64,000 nucleotides of DNA from the IMG/VR virus record IMGVR_UViG_3300042294_002813, positions 1 through 64,000 of that record. One strand, given 5' to 3'. Made by a program: the position numbers and the translations under genes. This document shows, piece after piece, positions 2,190 through 12,425 of the stretch. The notes beneath the pieces are model-generated. The model searched no databases and was not told where the DNA came from. It saw only the letters and a list, made by a program, of their open reading frames with translations. Within the stretch, counting starts at the first letter, position 1; every line of letters begins with the position of its first letter. The DNA is from a virus.

Positions 2190-3383
2190 TTAAAACACAA
2201 TCTCGTTAGCCTGCTTGATCTTTTCTTCAAGAGATGCATCCGTCGTTGCTGTAGACGTTTCCGTATTAGCAACAACAGGAGCATTAGCCTCTGCATCAAT
2301 CTTTGTATACAGATCCATGAACGAAGTCTTGGTGTCAAGATCAAAACGATTCAGACACAGACGAATTGCCTTCATGCGATCACGACTGAAGATCTTGTAT
2401 GCGTCGCAAATATGCACAAGACGACGAGTGGAAATAATCTCGGTCGTGCCGCCATCGTAATAGGTACGACGAATTGCATCTGCCCACTTGATAAGCAGCT
2501 CAACAAAGGTCTTGTCATCCTCCGTACGATCCAGAAGATTATGTAGAATCTTCTTCTCGGTTACGGCAGGCGGATACTCCTGCTCCATCGTGATAGAGAA
2601 ACGTTCCAGAAACGCCTCGTTCATGACGTTAGTGCCAATGAAGCGGCCATCGTCAGAACCACGACCCTTGGTATTTGCAGTAGCGATTACAGTAAATCCA
2701 CGAGCCGGCTGAACCAGCTTGTTGATCTTCTTGATGAAGACAGACTTGCCTTCAAGCACGGGCTGAAGACACATAAGCTTGATGGTACCAAGGTCAACCT
2801 CGTCCAGAAGAAGAACCGCACCACGCTCCATCGCCATCACAACGGGACCATTATGCCACACAGTCTGACCATCGACAAGACGGAAACCACCAATCAGGTC
2901 GTCCTCGTCAGTCTCAGCCGTGATGTTCACGCGAACCATCTCGCGGCGAGCCTTGGCACAAGCCTGCTCGACCATCATGGTCTTGCCGTTGCCAGACAGA
3001 CCAGTGATATAGACTGGATAGAACATCTTGGATGAGATGATCGACTCAACATCCGAGAAGTTACCAAAGGGAACGTAATTCTTATTGGGAGTCGGAATCA
3101 AAGACTCCGAGATGTTTGTACCAATAGTCTGAAGATTCATCGTAGTTGCCTGTGGCATAGGAGTTTCCGAAACAGAAGGTATAGGAGTTTCTACAGCACC
3201 AATGCTGGGAAGTTTATAGACACCGCGAGAGTGACGATACTGATCGTCAATCGCGATCCACCTAGGCCACTTGAAGTTATGAGCGCGGCAAAGTTCCTTG
3301 GCATCCTTGCGAGAAATGGTAGTCATATACCCGTTCTGGTTAGCCAGTCGAATGAAAGCAATCTGCTTTTCCGTAAGCGACAT
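2190..3383 (-). CDS. MoxR/CobS-like AAA+ ATPase
   Basis: Walker A GLSGNGKT, Walker B LLLDEVD, ATANTKG, NEAFLERF, ISTRRL; start at 3383 (SD GAGGA). Confidence 0.9.
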   Translation of the reverse strand: MSLTEKQIAFIRLANQNGYMTTISRKDAKELCRAHNFKWPRWIAIDDQYRHSRGVYKLPSIGAVETPIPSVSETPMPQATTMNLQTIGTNISESLIPTPNKNYVPFGNFSDVESIISSKMFYPVYITGLSGNGKTMMVEQACAKARREMVRVNITAETDEDDLIGGFRLVDGQTVWHNGPVVMAMERGAVLLLDEVDLGTIKLMCLQPVLEGKSVFIKKINKLVQPARGFTVIATANTKGRGSDDGRFIGTNVMNEAFLERFSITMEQEYPPAVTEKKILHNLLDRTEDDKTFVELLIKWADAIRRTYYDGGTTEIISTRRLVHICDAYKIFSRDRMKAIRLCLNRFDLDTKTSFMDLYTKIDAEANAPVVANTETSTATTDASLEEKIKQANEIVF

Positions 3384-3408
3384 ATTTTCCTCTATCAAGT
3401 TATAATTT

Positions 3409-3437
3409 AGTATACGATATATGATTGGTATAATCAA
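3409..3437 (-). promoter_or_regulatory. sigma70-type promoter for the MoxR gene
   Basis: TTGATT-17 nt-TATACT. Confidence 0.7.
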
Positions 3438-5764
3438 GCACTAATTTTCTCAATGAACCGGGAAAGAACAATACGATTGTCCAACTTGTTCTTGGAATAC
3501 TTGGCAAAGACCTTCGCAATGCTCTTTGCTGTAGTTGCCTTACCAAGATTAAGTTCGGTGGTCTGAATGTTCATCTCCTCAGCCTTGAGAATGTAGTACA
3601 CCGAATAACCAAGATTGGTAACTTCAATGTACTTGTTCTTTACATAGTCCTTATACAGCTTCTCGACCTGATTTGGATCTGCTGAATACTGTGAGAAAGA
3701 CATGGAATTCACTCGACCGGAATTTATATAGTATCCAATCACATTCGTTCCAGTTCTTTCGCGCAGACGATTCAAGAAGATTGCCGTTGTGGCAGATTTA
3801 TCCCACAGATTATCGACAACAGCTTCACTCTTGGTAACGGTATCACGAAGAACCACATCTTGAGTATATGGATTATAGCCCTTGTTCCTAACCTCAATAC
3901 TGTCTGTATCCTCGCCATCGGTAAGAATGACGGTGTTGACGATCTGAAGCTTATGCTTCGCACGAAAAGCATTGACAATGCTTGTCGCACAAACAATAGT
4001 CGCATCCAAAGGAGTAGAACCGAAAGTAAACGGCCTGATATCTACAGCAGCATTCATTTTCCTAAAGAACTTGCATAGCATCAGAAGATTACCAATAGCC
4101 TGATTGAACTCGCCTTCCTTCATCCTTGAAGACAGCAACTGAAGCAGAGACAAGCTTGAATTGATAAGCAAATCACCATCCTTGTATGAATGCTGACGTG
4201 CTTCGATAGCACTGATCTCTTCGGCGGACATATTCTTATGTCCATATACATTTGAAAATGCATAAACGTCAAACGGAATCTGAACACGCTTGCAGAACAT
4301 GACCATATTTACAAGCTGCTCAATCAATCCAGAAATTGAAGTTGTCATCGATCCAGACCAATCAATGAACATGACAAGTCCATGATTCTTTCCGGTAGGC
4401 ACATTGGTGATGCGCTTGAACAGGTCATCATTATACTTGTAGGTATGCAGCTTGTTGGTATTGATCACACCAGTCTTGGAAATTGACGAGCGAGAATAGG
4501 TATCAGCCGCCTTTCGCATCTCAAATTCCTTGACCATGTATGAAATTACCGCAGCGTTCTCCGAACGGAACTTGATGCACTCTGCAAGAACCTGCTCCTT
4601 GGTATGACCAGGAATAAATCCATATATGTCGCCGCGACGAGCCACCTCAGAAAGACCGACGAAGCCATTGCCACCATCATGAACCTGCTTGTAAGGCACA
4701 ATCCAATTATGACCGTTGACCTCGGGAATGTTTACATAAACATAGCCCTTGGTCCCTTCCCTAACGAGTTCATCCTTCTTGGATTCCCAAGACTCCTGAG
4801 TCTCGGAAGTCGGATTCTGTCTAAATCCCTCATCAAGAGGAGACTTGGTCTCCTGATCGGAAATTTCATCTTCGTCGGAAGAACTGGTCTCCGAATCATC
4901 ATCTTCGGAATCAGAAGAACCCTCCTCTTCATCGTCCTTGCCGGATTCACCAGCAGAACCTTCATCCGAAGTCTTGCCGTCAGACTTGTCGGATTCATCT
5001 GAGTCATCGGAATTTTCCGAAGAAGAATCGTCAACCTCATCAGATTCTTCACCAGACTCCTCGCCAGACTCGTCTTCATACGGCATGGAAAACTCACCAC
5101 TCTCATCGGGATAGAACTCCGAATCGTCGTAATAGTTTTCCTCGTCATTCTCAGGCTGATCTTCCTTATGTTCCTTACAATAAGTATAGATTGCCTGAGC
5201 AGCCTTGACAACGTCGTCAAAGCTTTCGCAATTCTCAGCCATTTCAACCAGCTTCTTTTCAGCCGGAGTGAAGTCGATGATGATTGCAGAACCAAGCTTC
5301 AAATGAAGATTGATGCGGTCAATCAGACCGTAAGACTTGATGCTACGTCCAGCGGTGCCAAAGAAATTGCGATCCAGCAAATCCTTATAGCCAAGGGAGA
5401 AGGAACGACGCATACCAGGATAACGACGACGCACAAGCTTCTCAATGCGACCGTCTTCGATCACATTCAAAAACATCTTGGAACCGCGAGGGTTCTTGGC
5501 ATCAATCGATTCGATGGCATTCTTTAGAATATCCGCTGACGGCGGAGTGTCAAGAGCGTGACCGACCTCGTGTCCGACGAGCGTATCATAGATGTTGCCA
5601 GTCATGTTCTTCCAAATTGGAAGGACAAGAAGACGCTTCTCAACATCAAAATACGCCGTGCGAACCGCACGATGCTCGACGGTCAGGTTTTCGTTTGCCA
5701 TGAGACGCGCAAGCTGACTCTTGGCTTCCCTATGAATTTGGGAGTTGCTGTTTTCTGTCATCAT
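3434..5764 (-). CDS. CobT-like protein: N-terminal HExxH domain, acidic linker, C-terminal vWA domain
   Basis: HEVGH, EDGRIE, long D/E/S-rich linker, MIDAS DWSGSM, TPL, LTDGE; adjacent to MoxR ATPase; start moved to 5764. Confidence 0.85.
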   Translation of the reverse strand: MMTENSNSQIHREAKSQLARLMANENLTVEHRAVRTAYFDVEKRLLVLPIWKNMTGNIYDTLVGHEVGHALDTPPSADILKNAIESIDAKNPRGSKMFLNVIEDGRIEKLVRRRYPGMRRSFSLGYKDLLDRNFFGTAGRSIKSYGLIDRINLHLKLGSAIIIDFTPAEKKLVEMAENCESFDDVVKAAQAIYTYCKEHKEDQPENDEENYYDDSEFYPDESGEFSMPYEDESGEESGEESDEVDDSSSENSDDSDESDKSDGKTSDEGSAGESGKDDEEEGSSDSEDDDSETSSSDEDEISDQETKSPLDEGFRQNPTSETQESWESKKDELVREGTKGYVYVNIPEVNGHNWIVPYKQVHDGGNGFVGLSEVARRGDIYGFIPGHTKEQVLAECIKFRSENAAVISYMVKEFEMRKAADTYSRSSISKTGVINTNKLHTYKYNDDLFKRITNVPTGKNHGLVMFIDWSGSMTTSISGLIEQLVNMVMFCKRVQIPFDVYAFSNVYGHKNMSAEEISAIEARQHSYKDGDLLINSSLSLLQLLSSRMKEGEFNQAIGNLLMLCKFFRKMNAAVDIRPFTFGSTPLDATIVCATSIVNAFRAKHKLQIVNTVILTDGEDTDSIEVRNKGYNPYTQDVVLRDTVTKSEAVVDNLWDKSATTAIFLNRLRERTGTNVIGYYINSGRVNSMSFSQYSADPNQVEKLYKDYVKNKYIEVTNLGYSVYYILKAEEMNIQTTELNLGKATTAKSIAKVFAKYSKNKLDNRIVLSRFIEKISA

Positions 5765-5770
5765 GTGGTT

Positions 5771-5799
5771 AGTATACTCTGCTGTTTTGGTAAAGACAA
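5771..5799 (-). promoter_or_regulatory. sigma70-type promoter, probably giving a leaderless mRNA
   Basis: TTGTCT-17 nt-TATACT, with the ATG starting 7 nt downstream of the -10 box and no SD. Confidence 0.65.
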
Positions 5800-5841
5800 G
5801 GACTTTTTTAGTCCACCACATATCTATATTGGAATTGCGAA

Positions 5842-6540
5842 TTAGTCCTTGATGGCAATGAATCCAGTAAATGCATAGTTTTGCCAGAATGTATCAATTG
5901 AATTCTTGTTGAATCCTGCCTCAATGCACATATTGATCAATTCATCTCTGGTATTTGCCTTCAACATGGAACGAAGCTTCTTTTCCTTGGTCATGATATC
6001 ATCATACTCAAAACTCTGACGTTTGAAGTCATAGTATGTGAAGGTTCTCATCTCCTGAATTAGGGAATGATTCGACAAAGTCTTTTCAGCAAAGATGAAT
6101 GCTCCACCAGGAATTAGACTGTCATAAATTTGGTTTATGACATTTTGACGATCTTGCCTTGGCATGAATTGCAAGGTAAAGATTGATGTCACCAATGAAG
6201 TCTTGGCTGAAAATTCGACCTCGCGAACATCACCGCAGAAAAAACCAAGATTTGATGGAATGTTATTGTTTTCAGATTCTTGAAAATGGGGATAGAAATC
6301 TTCTTCGATTTCAATGCCAATATATTGGGCTTTCTGAGCAATAGTCTTGTTCTGTTCAATCATTGCCTTGAGCATCTTGCCCGTCGAACAACCAATATCG
6401 TACACAATGGTATCGTTTTCAACAAAGTACTGCGAAAGATTGATGACATCACCAATTAGATCATTGTACCCACGAATTGACTGACTAATGTGATTATCAA
6501 AGCCCTCTTCGCGCTGGGCAAAGGTAAATTTCTGTGTCAT
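5842..6540 (-). CDS. cmoA: CmoA-like carboxy-S-adenosylmethionine synthase
   Basis: Colinear CmoA motifs: FTF, SIRGY, VYDIGCSTG, GDVRE, FTLQF, IYDSLIPGGAFIFAEK, YDFKR, AGF..WQ. Confidence 0.82.
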   Translation of the reverse strand: MTQKFTFAQREEGFDNHISQSIRGYNDLIGDVINLSQYFVENDTIVYDIGCSTGKMLKAMIEQNKTIAQKAQYIGIEIEEDFYPHFQESENNNIPSNLGFFCGDVREVEFSAKTSLVTSIFTLQFMPRQDRQNVINQIYDSLIPGGAFIFAEKTLSNHSLIQEMRTFTYYDFKRQSFEYDDIMTKEKKLRSMLKANTRDELINMCIEAGFNKNSIDTFWQNYAFTGFIAIKD

Positions 6541-7328
6541 CTATTGCTCCAATCCTTGCAAATGTCCATGATACGTTTTCTTTTACGATAGTTGATCATT
6601 ATATCAGGTATCAGAACAGAGTCAAACAATTTATCTATTCCAGATCCCAGTTGCAGATTGATATGCTTCTTGACACCACCAAACTGTGCAAACTCGACAA
6701 ATGCTTCTACTACATGATGCTTTTGGTATGGTTGATTGAGTTCGTACCAATCTTTGCTCCAAAAGAATTCTTTTACTGCATCCGTGAGATATGGAGTTAT
6801 GAATGTCTTGTTGTGTCTATCGGCAATTTTCTTGTGCCAAAGATGTCCTGCACGATGATCAATCTTGAAATAGTCTTCTCTAAACTCGTTGAATTTTTCC
6901 ATCGTATGCTTATAGTGTATGTTTGCTTTCTTCGATACGCCATAGTAACCATCAGCTGCCCATCCACTCAAAACTTCGGTCTCTTCTATTTGTGGATACA
7001 CATATAGAAATGGAAAACAACATTCATAGTGTGTCTTCTTTACACATTCAATTTCACGACGAAGACGCATGAAATCATTTGATACGTTGTCAGTTGGAAC
7101 TTCTATTGTCTTGCATGACCAACCCATGATGTTGCATATTTCATTTGCTTTTTGTGCATCATATGTTGGTTGATCTTTTAGATGAAAAGTATACGCTGTG
7201 ATCTTCTTACCCAGCCTATGAGCGGCAAGAGCCACAGAAATGCTATCAACGCCGCCGGATAAGAGTACAGCGACGTTGACATCCTTTGAAGATTTTTCTA
7301 GTTCATCGCATAGTATTTTGTCTATCAT
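6537..7328 (-). CDS. Asparagine-synthetase-like (PP-loop) ATP-dependent amide ligase lacking the glutaminase domain
   Basis: LLSGGVDS PP-loop, YTF, VLSGWAADGYYG (cf. SGEGADE), TPYL, QK. Confidence 0.75.
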   Translation of the reverse strand: MIDKILCDELEKSSKDVNVAVLLSGGVDSISVALAAHRLGKKITAYTFHLKDQPTYDAQKANEICNIMGWSCKTIEVPTDNVSNDFMRLRREIECVKKTHYECCFPFLYVYPQIEETEVLSGWAADGYYGVSKKANIHYKHTMEKFNEFREDYFKIDHRAGHLWHKKIADRHNKTFITPYLTDAVKEFFWSKDWYELNQPYQKHHVVEAFVEFAQFGGVKKHINLQLGSGIDKLFDSVLIPDIMINYRKRKRIMDICKDWSNR

Positions 7329-8541
7329 TATATGGTTTCAAAACATTCTCATAAATGCTGCTTGCCAATGCAGCCATCATCTTGGGCGCGACCATTCGAC
7401 CGATACGTTCGGCTTGTTGATCAAAATTACCAGTAAGAACAAAGTCCTCAGGAAGACTCATGATACGCTTCAATTCCTTGATCGTGAACTTTCTATTTTC
7501 GGCATAGTGAAATACACCTGAGACAGATTTCTGTTGTCCACGTTGTGTCAACGTAGGACATGGAAGATCTGGACATGGACGAATCATGTTGAAACATGAT
7601 GCCTTTGGATTCCAATCGCGGTATTCCTTGTCGGAAGGCTTTGTGTGTCTTGTAGGATTGAATGGAAGTTTCGTGATCCAATCTTTTTGAAATCCTCCCA
7701 TGACATAGTCCTTGAGTTCTTGAATCTCATTTGGATCGTTTTCTACATCTTCGATAGCTTGGCGAAGCGTCACATGCTTTGTATGTGTTGGATTAGGAAA
7801 CACGATTGAATGCATATTCAGAAAGTTCAAATCTAGAGCATCACAAACATCTTCACGAATGCATACGAAAAGAGTGCGCTCTCTACCTTGCGGAACTCCA
7901 AAGTCTGCGGCATTCAAGACTTGATATGTTACTTGATAGCCAATCTTTTCAAACGAGTTGATGAACTCATACAGCTTTTCTTTAGCTTCACCAAAAGTGA
8001 TACCCTTGACGTTCTCGGCAACAATTACCTTTGGCTTGATTTCTTCGGCGATGCGAATGAATTCAAGAAACAGGTTTTCAATACTCTCGACAGTCTTTCC
8101 GTCCGAGTACTTCTTAACACCTTCTTGAACTTCAATATCACCTTCTTCAATGACATTGCCTTCGTCGTCAAAATATGAATTGCGTGTATCTTTGACATAT
8201 CCAGCCCAACCCTTTTCTCTCTTGCCAGCAACAGAAAATGCAGAGCATGGAGGTGAGCCATCAAGTAAATCAAGTTCACCTGGCTTTAGACCAGCCGTCT
8301 CTAGAAAGTCCTTACCTGTCAATTTCTTGATGTCGCCGGGAATGATCTTTGTATCTGGAAAATTTGTCGAGTATGTCTTGATTGCTTCTTCAACGAATTC
8401 ATTGATTGCAATGATATTTCCACCCGCAAGACGATAGCCGGTGGAAGATCCACCGCCACCTGCAAATGTGGAAATGACGTTGAACAGTCTTCTCGCTGAA
8501 GACTCTTTTACATCGGCAACAGTATATTTCTGGTACATCAT
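7303..8541 (-). CDS. C5 DNA cytosine methyltransferase-like enzyme (possible carboxymethyltransferase)
   Basis: Motif I FAGGGG, IV GSPPCSAFS, VI ENVKG, VIII QGRERT, TRD PTLT, IX RKFTIKELKRIMSLP, X IGRMV (atypical). Confidence 0.9.
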   Translation of the reverse strand: MMYQKYTVADVKESSARRLFNVISTFAGGGGSSTGYRLAGGNIIAINEFVEEAIKTYSTNFPDTKIIPGDIKKLTGKDFLETAGLKPGELDLLDGSPPCSAFSVAGKREKGWAGYVKDTRNSYFDDEGNVIEEGDIEVQEGVKKYSDGKTVESIENLFLEFIRIAEEIKPKVIVAENVKGITFGEAKEKLYEFINSFEKIGYQVTYQVLNAADFGVPQGRERTLFVCIREDVCDALDLNFLNMHSIVFPNPTHTKHVTLRQAIEDVENDPNEIQELKDYVMGGFQKDWITKLPFNPTRHTKPSDKEYRDWNPKASCFNMIRPCPDLPCPTLTQRGQQKSVSGVFHYAENRKFTIKELKRIMSLPEDFVLTGNFDQQAERIGRMVAPKMMAALASSIYENVLKPYNDRQNTMR

Positions 8542-8573: not shown

Positions 8574-8783
8574 TCAATCGGTTTCTCTATACTTATTTTT
8601 CGTTATTTCGTTCCAATATGAATCATCATCTTCCAATTTCCTTGCAATCTTATATAGTCTAATCATATGATCACTCATGTTGTCTTCGCCGTGAACATTG
8701 ATTAGTCTATCGCGAAGCCAATGCAAAAAATCACTATCACTCATCATGAGATTATCCCAATACATGAATTCACTTTGAATCAT
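8574..8783 (-). CDS. Hypothetical protein
   Basis: Fills the gap between coupled genes; FLHWLRDRLINVHGE is a plausible small phage protein. Confidence 0.5.
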   Translation of the reverse strand: MIQSEFMYWDNLMMSDSDFLHWLRDRLINVHGEDNMSDHMIRLYKIARKLEDDDSYWNEITKNKYRETD

Positions 8784-9345
8784 TTCTAGTCATCTTAATA
8801 CGCATCTTGCGTTCTTTTTCTCTTGCCATCATCAGAGTAGTTTTACCAACTCTCTCGGTAAAGCAAATGCCATCAAGATGATCATATTCGTGCTGAATGC
8901 AACGAGCGGTAAGACCAGTAAACTTGTCTTCTTTCCATTCACCACTAACGTGTTGATACTTGACCTTGATTTCTTGTGGACGAGAAACTTTGAAGAATAG
9001 ACGTTTGAACGTCAAGCAACCTTCAAGATGATCATCTTCTCTTTGAGATCTTTCAATGATTTCTGGATTGAAGAATACCTGCTTGTTCGTATTGTCATAT
9101 CCAACGACAAATACACGATAAGGTATGCCAACTTGCGGCGCAGCCAAACCAAGACCACTATGCTTGAACATCGTCTCGAAAAGAGATGACGCAAGATGAA
9201 TTGGATCAATTGGCGGATTTGCAAAATCAAATGGCTTGCAAACTTGCTTCAATACTGGATCCGTAGATTTGACTAGATCATATATTTCATACGGTCTTAT
9301 TGTTTGCGCCGCCGTATTGATCTTTAGCATTCCGTTTTCTATCAT
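8770..9345 (-). CDS. def: Peptide deformylase
   Basis: GLGLAAPQVG, EGCLT, QHEYDHLDG; start at 9345 (SD GAGG). Confidence 0.93.
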   Translation of the reverse strand: MIENGMLKINTAAQTIRPYEIYDLVKSTDPVLKQVCKPFDFANPPIDPIHLASSLFETMFKHSGLGLAAPQVGIPYRVFVVGYDNTNKQVFFNPEIIERSQREDDHLEGCLTFKRLFFKVSRPQEIKVKYQHVSGEWKEDKFTGLTARCIQHEYDHLDGICFTERVGKTTLMMAREKERKMRIKMTRNDSK

Positions 9346-9352
9346 CTTATCC

Positions 9353-9649
9353 TCACTTGATATTTGCAATCAAAGCCACATCTTCTTTATCAGCCAAATA
9401 ACATCTGGCACGATAGATCATATCAAATTTATCCGAATGAGATTCTTTTGTAAATAGTACAAGATTTTCCTTCAACAATGTTCTAGCCATTTCGTTGGCT
9501 AGTTTTTCTTTTATGAGATCTTCGAAGATCTGCTTCTTGTCTATCGACATATTTTCTAACCAAAATTCTGTCACAGTATGTTGTACCGTCACAATCTTGG
9601 TTTTTACTGCATGCGTTTGAACATTGGAAGAATCATCATTATACATCAT
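9353..9649 (-). CDS. Hypothetical protein
   Basis: 98-aa ORF with ATGA overlap with gp46. Confidence 0.55.
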   Translation of the reverse strand: MMYNDDSSNVQTHAVKTKIVTVQHTVTEFWLENMSIDKKQIFEDLIKEKLANEMARTLLKENLVLFTKESHSDKFDMIYRARCYLADKEDVALIANIK

Positions 9650-11361
9650 TTCACAATCCTTGAAAAATTATTGATCTTTTCAAACTTGATTATTGATCTA
9701 AACTTGTCAAACAAAATATCGCCCTTGTGACTAATAACAAAAACATTGGTATCACTACTTATGGAGTTCAAAATCTTCAGTAGTTCTTCCGTTCCATTTG
9801 AGTCTAATGAACTATCAAAGATTTCATCCAGTATCAGCAAATTGGTATTCACGCTATTCTTCATCTTGGCAATTGCTCTCCAAGTGAATAGTAGTGCCAG
9901 ATCGATCTTTTGCTTTTCGCCTTCGGAGAAATTCTCGTAGGCAAATTCATCACGATGGCGAGACTTGATGACCTCCTCAAAGCTTTCATTGATATTGAAA
10001 TTGACATAGAACTCCATGCTACTCAAATACTTGTTGATTAGCTTGTTCATGACTGGAAGATATTGCTTTATGATCTTGGTTTTGATACCAGTATCTTTCA
10101 GTAGAATAGAAACTTGTTCATGATGATGCTTATCATTGACCAATCTCTTCTCGTCTTCAACAAGATCATTCAGTTGCTTTTCAAGTGCTTTTAGATCATC
10201 AGTATGCGTTGTGTCTATTGTCTTGTTCTGCTCAATGGTATCAATTTCTTTTTGTAGCTTCTGGATATAACCATTGACTGCAGTAATAGTTGCATTTTTT
10301 TCCTGAGACTTGAATGTCTTGTCCTTTATCTTTTTCAACGTCTTTTGGATCTGAGCAATTTGCGTATTGATCTTCTCCAATTCATTATCTATTTCCTTAA
10401 GACCATTGCCGTATTCTGCAATCTTGTCTTGAAATGTCTGAATCTGGGTTTTCTTGAAATCTTCGCTAATTGATTGACGACATGTCGGGCAATCATCATT
10501 GGTTTCATAGAAATTAATTTCGCTCTGTGCCTTCTCGGCATTGTCTTGTATCTTGACGATGAGACTGTTTAGCTTGTTGGACTTGCCAACCAGCTTCTTC
10601 TCACCAACGACTTCAGATTGAAGCTTAACGATCTCTTGATCAAGAGACGCCTTTTCTTTTTCCAAAGTAACTATTTGAGATTTGCTATTTGCAATGTCTC
10701 TTTGTGTCTTTTCAATATGAAGAGTTTTTGTATTGGTAATCTCATTGATCAACTTTTTCGTTGATTCGATCTTGACCTTTACAACTTCCCTACGATGAGA
10801 AACGTCACTCATCTCATCCTTGATTGCTTGAAGCTTTTGCTTCAATACAACATTCATGGACGAAAAGATTTGTATATCCAAAAGATCTTCTATGATTGCA
10901 CGACGATCTGCAGCAGACAACTGCATGAACGGAACAAAGGTAGATGAACCAAGAACTACGATCTGGGTAAACGACTTGTAGTTCATCTTGAGAATGAACT
11001 TTTCAAGATACTCTTGGTAATCTCGCGAAGACGCATCTTGATTGACTAGTTCATTGTCACAATAGATTTCAAACTTGCCCGGCTTGATTCCGCGAAGGAT
11101 CTTGTAGGATTTCTTACCTATTATAAACTCTATCTCGACAACGCAGTCTTTTTCATTGACGCTATTCAATAGCCCTGGCTTATTGATACCGCGAAATGGT
11201 TTACCAAATAGAGCGAAAGTCAACGCATCCAAGAGTGTTGACTTTCCGCTTCCATTGTTTCCTACGATTAGTGTTGTAGGAGATTTGTTTAGTGTAATCT
11301 CCGTGAAGTCATTTCCTGTAGAAAGAAAGTTTCTCCAACGAACTTTTTCAAAGAGTATCAT
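9646..11361 (-). CDS. gp46: Recombination ATPase subunit (Rad50/SbcC-like)
   Basis: GNNGSGKST, CPTC zinc hook, FSEGEK signature, LDEIFD, ISHK. Confidence 0.95.
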   Translation of the reverse strand: MILFEKVRWRNFLSTGNDFTEITLNKSPTTLIVGNNGSGKSTLLDALTFALFGKPFRGINKPGLLNSVNEKDCVVEIEFIIGKKSYKILRGIKPGKFEIYCDNELVNQDASSRDYQEYLEKFILKMNYKSFTQIVVLGSSTFVPFMQLSAADRRAIIEDLLDIQIFSSMNVVLKQKLQAIKDEMSDVSHRREVVKVKIESTKKLINEITNTKTLHIEKTQRDIANSKSQIVTLEKEKASLDQEIVKLQSEVVGEKKLVGKSNKLNSLIVKIQDNAEKAQSEINFYETNDDCPTCRQSISEDFKKTQIQTFQDKIAEYGNGLKEIDNELEKINTQIAQIQKTLKKIKDKTFKSQEKNATITAVNGYIQKLQKEIDTIEQNKTIDTTHTDDLKALEKQLNDLVEDEKRLVNDKHHHEQVSILLKDTGIKTKIIKQYLPVMNKLINKYLSSMEFYVNFNINESFEEVIKSRHRDEFAYENFSEGEKQKIDLALLFTWRAIAKMKNSVNTNLLILDEIFDSSLDSNGTEELLKILNSISSDTNVFVISHKGDILFDKFRSIIKFEKINNFSRIVK

Positions 11362-12425
11362 ACTTTTTCCAAATTTATTGCTTCCAGATAAAGTTCTCTG
11401 AGAATTGATTTGAGTTTATCAGCAGAATCCATTTGAAGACCATCGACATACTTATCAAGTATGGTCATGGTATCTTCACCTTCATCTATGATATCACTAT
11501 CGTCCTTATTTGTCAAATCGGAAAAGTCTTCCACGATGCTTATGTCCAAAGGAGCAGCATCGATCAACTTTTGCATGAATCGCTCAAACAAGAATGGATT
11601 GGTCTTGTGCAAAACCAAAATCTTCACATATGTTCCTGTGTACTCGCTGAAATCAAGCTTTTTCAACTTATCGAAGTCCAAATCGTTCTTGTCATCATAT
11701 GTAATCTTGAAGAACATTTGATATGGATTTTCAACGAATGCCAGTTCCCTTGTATCTGTATCAAACACGTGGAATCCACGCTTATCATCATAGTCTGCCC
11801 ATGTCATTTGATATTGATTGCCTAGATAAACAATATGACCATCTGTAGACTTGTGGTGAAAATGACCAGAAAGAACCATTTCAAACTTGTCAAATACCGA
11901 ACGATTCATTCCATCGCGACAAACATTACCGCGATCCATTTCAAATCCAGCTATCTCAAGATGACCAAATGCTACCTGTGCTCTGCTTGCCTTGATGTGG
12001 TCAAGAGTTCTTTGCTGATTTTCGACGTTAATCCAAGGTAACAGGCAAATGTCAAAATTATCAATAGAGATGTCGCAAGGTTCCTTATAAACTCGAATGG
12101 TATCACTCTGTTCAAAAAGTTCTTCAATCGCATTGATATCGTTTGTATTCTTGTATGGAACATCATGGTTTCCTACCAATACATGCAGCTTTACATTCAT
12201 CTCCTTTAGACGACCAAAGAACTTGTTTCTCCAACGATTGAGGATGACATAGTTGATGAACTTGCGACGATCAACGATATCGCCAAGATGAATGACTGTG
12301 TCTATGTTGTTTTCCTTGAGATATGGAAAAAAGACATTGTCCCAAAAACGAAAAAAATAATCATCAAACGCAAGAGAATCATTTCTTGCGCCAGCATGAG
12401 TATCGTTAATGAGAGCAATCTTCAC
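11358..12425 (-). CDS. gp47: Recombination nuclease subunit (Mre11/SbcD-like)
   Basis: DTHAG, HLGDIVD, GNHD, GHLE, SGHFH phosphoesterase motifs. Confidence 0.95.
   Translation of the reverse strand: MKIALINDTHAGARNDSLAFDDYFFRFWDNVFFPYLKENNIDTVIHLGDIVDRRKFINYVILNRWRNKFFGRLKEMNVKLHVLVGNHDVPYKNTNDINAIEELFEQSDTIRVYKEPCDISIDNFDICLLPWINVENQQRTLDHIKASRAQVAFGHLEIAGFEMDRGNVCRDGMNRSVFDKFEMVLSGHFHHKSTDGHIVYLGNQYQMTWADYDDKRGFHVFDTDTRELAFVENPYQMFFKITYDDKNDLDFDKLKKLDFSEYTGTYVKILVLHKTNPFLFERFMQKLIDAAPLDISIVEDFSDLTNKDDSDIIDEGEDTMTILDKYVDGLQMDSADKLKSILRELYLEAINLEKV

Follow-up and report, generated by a model that had tools for sequence, protein, structure and literature searches.

Why does a phage enzyme that resembles a DNA cytosine C5-methyltransferase carry an arginine in motif X, where such enzymes usually have an asparagine, and what would it write into DNA? 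The enzyme is encoded in a stretch of 64,000 nucleotides (nt), referred to here as the window, that covers positions 1-64,000 of the IMG/VR record IMGVR_UViG_3300042294_002813; the record is linear, 73,160 bp long, and has a completeness estimate of 41%. Its gene, cmoX (7303-8541, minus strand, 412 aa), encodes a homolog of DNA cytosine C5-carboxymethyltransferases and is followed on the same strand by cmoY (6537-7328, 263 aa), encoding an ATP-dependent amide ligase homolog, and by cmoA (5842-6540, 232 aa), encoding a homolog of the synthase of carboxy-S-adenosylmethionine (Cx-SAM). We assign a probability of about 0.9 to the reading that these three genes are a DNA hypermodification module of the phage. 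A phage carboxymethylcytosine system is already known: its structure, its biochemistry and a large genomic survey have been in print since December 2025, when the CmoA-CmoX-CmoY system of Synechococcus phage S-B43 (proteins prefixed Sp below) was described by Yang et al. (Nat Commun 2025, PMC12783734). Window CmoX is predicted from its sequence to be an uncharacterised member of this known family.

Window CmoX belongs to PF00145 (C-5 cytosine DNA methylases; E-value 1.5e-57), and all the catalytic motifs are present. The SPPC motif with the catalytic Cys99 (residues 96-99; 8245-8256, minus strand) is identical to S95-C98 of SpCmoX. The C-terminal part of the protein containing motif X reads ...LTGNFDQQAERIGRMVAPKMMAALASS..., and its end reads ...GNFDQQAERIGRMVAPKMMAALASS.... 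Within the motif X region (residues 373-394; 7360-7425, minus strand), which reads FDQQAERIGRMVAPKMMAALAS in the translation of the open reading frame, motif X itself is ERIGRMVAP, that is, G-R-M-V and not the classical G-N-(A/S)-V. The first-pass annotation, made from the sequence without database searches, had proposed that the arginine takes the place of the conserved motif X asparagine, and this was confirmed: a gap-free HMMER alignment puts window residues 342-399 on residues 264-321 of M.HhaI and hence Arg382 (codon CGA, 7396-7398, minus strand) on Asn304, the conserved motif X asparagine. Arg382 also falls on Arg350 of SpCmoX in both the BLASTP and the MAFFT alignments. We then aligned 124 close homologs, namely window CmoX, its counterparts in three named phages and the 120 top-ranking database matches (62-99% identity). 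The SPPC motif is found in 124/124 of them and the arginine in 123/124, the lone exception being phage Melnitz, which has a leucine. Arg382 is thus no chance substitution.

The closest structure to window CmoX is that of SpCmoX. In a sequence search of the PDB, the best match was 8YF3 (E 2.5e-109), followed by M.HaeIII (4.9e-26). The two phage enzymes share 49% identity over 401 columns, with 64% in the N-terminal motifs, 53% in motifs V-VIII and 56% in motifs IX-X. An AlphaFold2 model of window CmoX built with 83 sequences (mean predicted local distance difference test score, pLDDT, of 93.5; predicted TM-score of 0.90) also retrieved 8yf3 as its best Foldseek match (E 5.5e-40, target-normalised TM 0.94), with M.HhaI complexes next (about 5e-21). 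The SpCmoX residues named by Yang et al. as Cx-SAM contacts or as catalytic (F25, E47, F48, D69, S95-P96-P97-C98 and R350) are all identical in the window enzyme (F26, E48, F49, D70, S96-C99 and R382). M.HhaI and M.HaeIII share the fold and catalytic motifs with window CmoX but have G-N-(A/S)-V in motif X and no insertion after the catalytic loop.

The role of this arginine has been established for SpCmoX. This enzyme forms 5-carboxymethylcytosine at GC sites with Cx-SAM as its only cofactor, and its activity in E. coli is cmoA-dependent; SpCmoA, the activity of which was assayed, produces Cx-SAM (PMC12783734). In the 1.9 Å crystal structure of SpCmoX with Cx-SAM (PDB 8YF3), Arg350 stands in place of HhaI Asn304 and contacts the carboxymethyl group (PMC12783734), which supports the earlier suggestion that the arginine binds the carboxylate of Cx-SAM. 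The same suggestion predicted that an arginine-to-asparagine mutant would revert to methyl transfer; this is contradicted by SpCmoX R350N, which accepts neither SAM nor Cx-SAM (PMC12783734). According to Yang et al., the Arg350 arrangement "mirrors" that of the engineered M.MpeI N374K (PMC12783734). Indeed, M.MpeI N374K and M.MedI N377K can use Cx-SAM because a positively charged side chain replaces their motif X asparagine (PMC12783734, PMC12015181). These engineered enzymes have a lysine, are CpG-specific and still use SAM, whereas the arginine of the window enzyme is natural and SpCmoX is GpC-specific and uses Cx-SAM only. It should be noted that M.MpeI (4dkj) matches window CmoX in sequence over residues 154-249 only and ranks 45th by fold; the equivalence of Arg382 with N374 is drawn from these papers and from the alignment to M.HhaI Asn304.

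Window CmoX has both of the sequence features used in the survey of Yang et al., SPPC and an arginine at the R350 position. That survey collected 5,615 such sequences from IMG/VR v4, UniProtKB and MGnify, and their contigs held 4,257 CmoA and 2,251 ligase genes (PMC12783734). Since the window comes from an IMG/VR record with both features, its contig is probably in the published set.

The two neighboring genes are those expected from S-B43. CmoY (PF00733, 5.2e-12) consists of the Asn-synthase PP-loop domain alone, without a glutaminase domain, as does SpCmoY, to which it is 50% identical over its full length (264 columns); its SGGVDS motif, read from the translation, occupies residues 24-29 (7242-7259, minus strand). 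CmoA is 49% identical to SpCmoA over its full length and matches E. coli CmoA (4gek, 1.7e-19) and H. influenzae YecO (1im8, 4.8e-20). The first 26 nt of cmoY coincide with the end of cmoX and cmoA overlaps the stop of cmoY by 4 nt, which points to a single cmoX-cmoY-cmoA operon with cmoA two genes downstream of cmoX. The start codons of cmoY and cmoA are backed by alignments that begin at residue 1. The window therefore resembles S-B43, which is also a T4-like marine phage, in having all three genes, but the order in the direction of transcription is A-Y-X in S-B43 and X-Y-A in the window.

The homology to bacterial CmoA raises the question of whether CmoA and its neighbors might act on RNA, in a cmo5U-like tRNA modification, and not on phage DNA. 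Bacterial CmoA supplies tRNA modification via CmoB, and the PHROGs label of the CmoA family is tRNA methyltransferase. However, no CmoB homolog (PF08003) was found in the 73-kb record, which is 41% complete, and a tRNA cmo5U role is for this reason not supported. In addition, the acceptor enzyme encoded with cmoA is a homolog of the DNA C5-cytosine methyltransferases, and its S-B43 homolog acts on DNA, with the modification seen in vitro, in E. coli and in virions (PMC12783734). We consider action on RNA extremely improbable, and the least likely of the explanations weighed here.

If the arginine selects Cx-SAM, enzymes of this type should occur with cmoA, a co-occurrence proposed by the first-pass annotation as a check. 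We analyzed 80 window-like loci, i.e., viral contigs encoding relatives 62-100% identical to window CmoX. The arginine was readable in 78 of them (one locus is truncated and one fell outside the search pattern), and 76 of these 78 have cmoA within the fetched flanks (77 of all 80 loci). The contigs of the two loci with the arginine and without cmoA (L077 and L078) end about 1.1 kb past the methyltransferase gene, and in their sisters (L079-L084) this is where cmoA lies. cmoY was found in 64/80 loci. Some of the misses are contig ends; others, such as L019, L020, L061 and L074, have 6 kb of sequence on both flanks and no cmoY, as is the case for phage S-CRM01, and several relatives bearing the insertion described below have no cmoY within 6 kb. 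The gene order is X-Y-A in the nearest relatives of the window and Y-X-A in most others.

The named phages gave the same picture. A CmoA-like gene was present in 6/6 phages with an Arg-type enzyme (S-B43, S-CRM01, Mcat8, TurkishDelight, Yoloswag and PaBG), the match being weak in Mcat8 and TurkishDelight. The search that returned these weak matches found a CmoA-like gene in 0/9 non-Arg phages, which comprise six Asn types (NatCom, FNU2, Pmp10, Nostoc A1, K14-2 and RB43), two Met types (S20A3 and LoVEphage) and one Leu type (Melnitz). The six Asn-type enzymes read G/A-N-A/S-V/I in motif X when aligned. These samples are small and the lineages non-independent; the direction is nonetheless clear, and the proposed association of GR-type enzymes with cmoA was borne out.

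Several of these phages have unusual features of their own. The two Met-type enzymes are SPPC methyltransferases with IGMSVPP in motif X and no cmoA in the genome (Flavobacterium phage FPSV-S20A3, L092, and Bacteroides LoVEphage, L094). Gp43 of Erwinia phage Yoloswag (L089:3001-5109) is a 702-aa Arg-type methyltransferase whose SPP|C motif is itself interrupted by an intein-like insert of about 340 residues (SPPC...HNC), and the cmoA of this phage lies about 14 kb from gp43 in the same genome. Streptomyces phage TurkishDelight (L088:1278-6306) encodes two ParB-like proteins, an Arg-type methyltransferase, a full Asn synthase with a glutaminase domain and a distant CmoA-like methyltransferase. 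This cluster fits the second ligase cluster of Yang et al., predicted to use glutamine-derived ammonia (PMC12783734).

The exception among the close homologs, phage Melnitz, led to a sister clade. The orthologous Melnitz methyltransferase is 40% identical to window CmoX over its full length and shares its SPPC motif and RIG-x-MVAP context, but has a leucine at the key position. No cmoA was found in the complete Melnitz genome, and the gene that follows the methyltransferase encodes a Tet_JBP dioxygenase (PF12851, 3.6e-11; the pair is at L002:4001-6185 in Methylophilales phage Melnitz-3). We compared the 80 window-like loci with 80 Melnitz-like loci (L123-L202), which are viral contigs with relatives of the Melnitz methyltransferase. 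The residue is a leucine in 80/80 Melnitz-like loci and an arginine in 78/78 readable window-like loci. A TET-like gene was found in 65/80 Melnitz-like and 0/80 window-like loci, whereas cmoA was found in 0/80 and 77/80, and cmoY in 0/80 and 64/80, respectively. The Melnitz TET protein had no tblastn match in the window or its 80 relatives.

According to Burke et al. (PNAS 2021, PMC8256090), phage TET enzymes act on 5-methylcytosine (5mC) placed at GpC by partner methyltransferases. Melnitz appears to be an example of such a TET-coupled GpC methyltransferase system, judging by its gene pair. Both routes would equip C5, once the DNA has been replicated, with a handle that can be decorated further, but the Melnitz type has a leucine, a Tet_JBP dioxygenase gene and neither cmoA nor cmoY, whereas the window type has an arginine, cmoA and no TET gene. 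CmoX thus looks like a sister of the TET-coupled GpC methyltransferases, built on the same scaffold and probably sharing their target dinucleotide. The pocket residue looks as if it tracks the handle installed, the arginine going with Cx-SAM and a ligase and the leucine with SAM and a dioxygenase.

These comparisons bear on the simplest alternative, in which window CmoX is an ordinary SAM-dependent 5mC methyltransferase and the arginine is incidental. The full PF00145 domain and the complete set of catalytic motifs would suit such an enzyme, and close relatives with an asparagine or a leucine do exist. Window CmoX has 22,834 protein matches at E <= 0.001, of which 794 are at E <= 1e-30. Among the best 150 representatives after clustering at 50%, 144 cover position 382, with Arg in 105, Asn in 29, Leu in 4, Lys in 2, Asp in 2, Tyr in 1 and Met in 1. 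However, the 49%-identical SpCmoX takes Cx-SAM only (PMC12783734), the arginine is nearly invariant among the close homologs, cmoA adjoins the gene here and accompanies it in nearly all the relatives, and the sister clade with the leucine, which is of the SAM type, has the TET gene and no cmoA. An ordinary 5mC methyltransferase is therefore very improbable, and we retain the carboxymethyltransferase reading.

Is the arginine then a marker of carboxymethyltransferases, as the first-pass annotation proposed? It is a strong positive marker. It is not a necessary one, because in two Staphylococcus phages cmoA occurs with a methyltransferase of the Gly type. In an SPbeta-like Staphylococcus phage (L090:5974-7673), cmoA directly adjoins a C5-methyltransferase gene, while in Staphylococcus phage vB-SscS-F1 (L205:3950-6468), cmoA is followed by a cmoY-like gene (2.1e-33 against window CmoY) and then by a C5-methyltransferase gene. 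Both enzymes belong to a lineage other than that of window CmoX and have SPC and not SPPC, and VVGGVIN where GN(A/S)V is expected, with a glycine at the aligned position. They may represent a second type of carboxymethyltransferase, one that lacks the arginine and that a filter on SPPC plus arginine would miss. Moreover, two records encode cmoA without any PF00145 gene, namely Alcaligenes phage Afa-NA1 (L091, a complete genome) and the faecal phage scaffold MT835562 (L206). In Afa-NA1, an annotated DNA adenine methylase gene lies about 2.5 kb from cmoA.

The rarer residues at the position of Arg382 are natural variants among close representatives: lysine in P0161 and P0193, aspartate in P0207 and P0263, and tyrosine in P0145. 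Lysine here would be the natural counterpart of the engineered N374K. Scans of viral, metagenome and genome contigs did not return the Lys-type genes, their matches being Arg- or Asn-type relatives, and the viral-contig scan with P0132, the closest Asn-type relative, gave a single remote match only.

A second feature of window CmoX is an insertion after the catalytic loop. This beta-rich segment (residues 113-152; 8086-8205, minus strand) lies between the catalytic loop and motif V and is longer than the corresponding segment of SpCmoX by about 19 residues and that of Melnitz by about 36. From GKREKGW, at the end of the catalytic loop, to IENLF, there are about 41 residues in the window enzyme versus about 22 in SpCmoX and a few in M.HhaI. 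In the AlphaFold2 model, the insertion forms short strands with a pLDDT of 69-86. It includes the acidic string FDDEGNVIEEGDIEVQE (residues 124-140; 8122-8172, minus strand, read from the translation), and the 29-residue stretch of residues 113-141 has 9 Asp/Glu versus 2 Lys/Arg. We looked at 20 alignment rows, every sixth of the 120 best matches, and all 20 have the hairpin-like extra segment, with the pattern DTRxxYFDDxGNIVxEGELxxKEG; many have a lysine where the window has a glutamate. In contrast, at least 20 residues of the 28-residue insertion core aligned in only 8/145 of the 50% representatives. On the strength of these two counts, the insertion characterises the clade to which window CmoX belongs, a very abundant marine clade of proteins of about 408 aa. 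The acidic insertion reported earlier after the PC motif is thus present, but it is not special to this enzyme: the hairpin is clade-wide and its acidity varies. We accordingly rejected the acidic patch as a feature peculiar to the window gene.

Homology, active-site residue identity, operon layout, co-occurrence with cmoA and the absence of TET and CmoB all come from direct analysis of the sequences here, and the published homologs suggest how the module would work. CmoA would convert SAM and host prephenate to Cx-SAM. In CmoX, Arg382 would bind the carboxylate of the cofactor while Cys99 attacks C6 of the cytosine, and the carboxymethyl group would be transferred to C5, so that 5-carboxymethylcytosine would arise post-replicatively in phage DNA. 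CmoY would then adenylate the carboxylate of this base and join it to an amine, most likely glycine, giving 5-glycylcarboxymethylcytosine (5gcxmC). The modified DNA would be expected to resist host restriction enzymes. The least secure parts of this scheme are the GpC target and the glycine, both taken over from the homologs. With a GpC motif, the targets would be the roughly 22% of the window's cytosines that lie in this dinucleotide. GpC is not avoided in the window and is over-represented, with an observed/expected ratio of 1.18. As a separate observation, GGCC is rarer than expected over the whole window, with 28 sites observed versus 57 expected from trinucleotides (ratio 0.49).

Several points weigh against this scheme. 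The chemistry of this phage's system is predicted from its genes, and the case for glycine is the 50% overall identity between CmoY and SpCmoY. The target-recognition region of CmoX (residues 241-345) is only 34% identical to that of SpCmoX, and GpC specificity is not assured. The insertion of about 40 residues in the window clade is absent from the crystallised SpCmoX. Finally, the best NCBIfam match of CmoA, TIGR00740 (CmoA), scores 107.7 bits, below the curated cut-off of 193.3 for the bacterial equivalog.

These differences could mean that the locus encodes a CmoA-CmoX-CmoY system with an end product unlike that of S-B43, carrying another amine (an amino acid or small amine) or placed at a non-GpC site. 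The divergence of the target-recognition region, the insertion proper to the window clade and the half-conserved CmoY leave room for this. So does the ligase network of Yang et al., in which clusters were drawn at about 30% identity and some have distinct active-site residues; the specificities of other CmoX enzymes were left for future determination (PMC12783734). On the other hand, the identity of window CmoY to SpCmoY would set it well inside the SpCmoY cluster, the whole of which was placed among the clusters keeping the glycine-carboxylate-binding residues; SpCmoY itself ligates glycine to give 5gcxmC, in vitro and in native phage virion DNA (PMC12783734). Similarly, the related TET-coupled methyltransferases are GpC-directed (PMC8256090), suggesting an early origin of GpC specificity in the clade. 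We consider a different end product unlikely, although far less so than the two rival explanations discussed above, and we continue to favor the S-B43-type product.

The window phage is an uncultivated marine T4-like phage. For its gp46, the nearest cultured relative is Methylophilales phage Melnitz (51%), followed by cyanomyoviruses (48-49%). Elsewhere in the window, the region 8770-12425 contains a peptide deformylase gene (PF01327, 3.3e-42) and encodes the SbcCD-like recombination nucleases gp46 and gp47, a pair that marine T4-like myoviruses typically have. Immediately downstream of cmoA, and on its strand, the region 2190-5821 encodes a CobS-like ATPase (phrog_249, porphyrin biosynthesis) and a protein of 795 aa (phrog_459) in which a long tract is acidic and rich in Ser/Asp/Glu.

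The significance of this system is that phage DNA naturally contains 5-carboxymethylcytosine, and that the enzyme writing this base is a methyltransferase homolog whose pocket arginine selects Cx-SAM. Our literature search found no further primary report of natural DNA carboxymethylation besides that of Yang et al. The reading made from the sequence alone is therefore a rediscovery of a real and recent result, and its core contributes nothing new to the biology. Only the contrast between the Arg and Leu clades, the limits of the arginine as a marker and the insertion extend beyond the published paper; the terms TET, dioxygenase, Leu, Lys and insertion have no occurrence in PMC12783734. In related marine T4-like phages, nature provides two contrasting sister clades, one with the arginine and cmoA and the other with the leucine and a TET gene. 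The pairing of cmoA with Gly-type enzymes in the Staphylococcus phages indicates that the arginine is not the sole solution, and an abundant marine clade carries the insertion. More speculatively, and with somewhat less confidence than we give to a different end product in the window phage, the marine CmoX clade of about 408 aa, with its insertion and diverged target-recognition region, may write another mark than S-B43, differing in its target motif or in the attached amine, and the insertion may represent a functional module not seen before. In the same tentative vein, the motif X position may be a cofactor switch, arginine going with CmoA and leucine with TET, and the rare lysine, aspartate and tyrosine variants could point to other SAM analogues.

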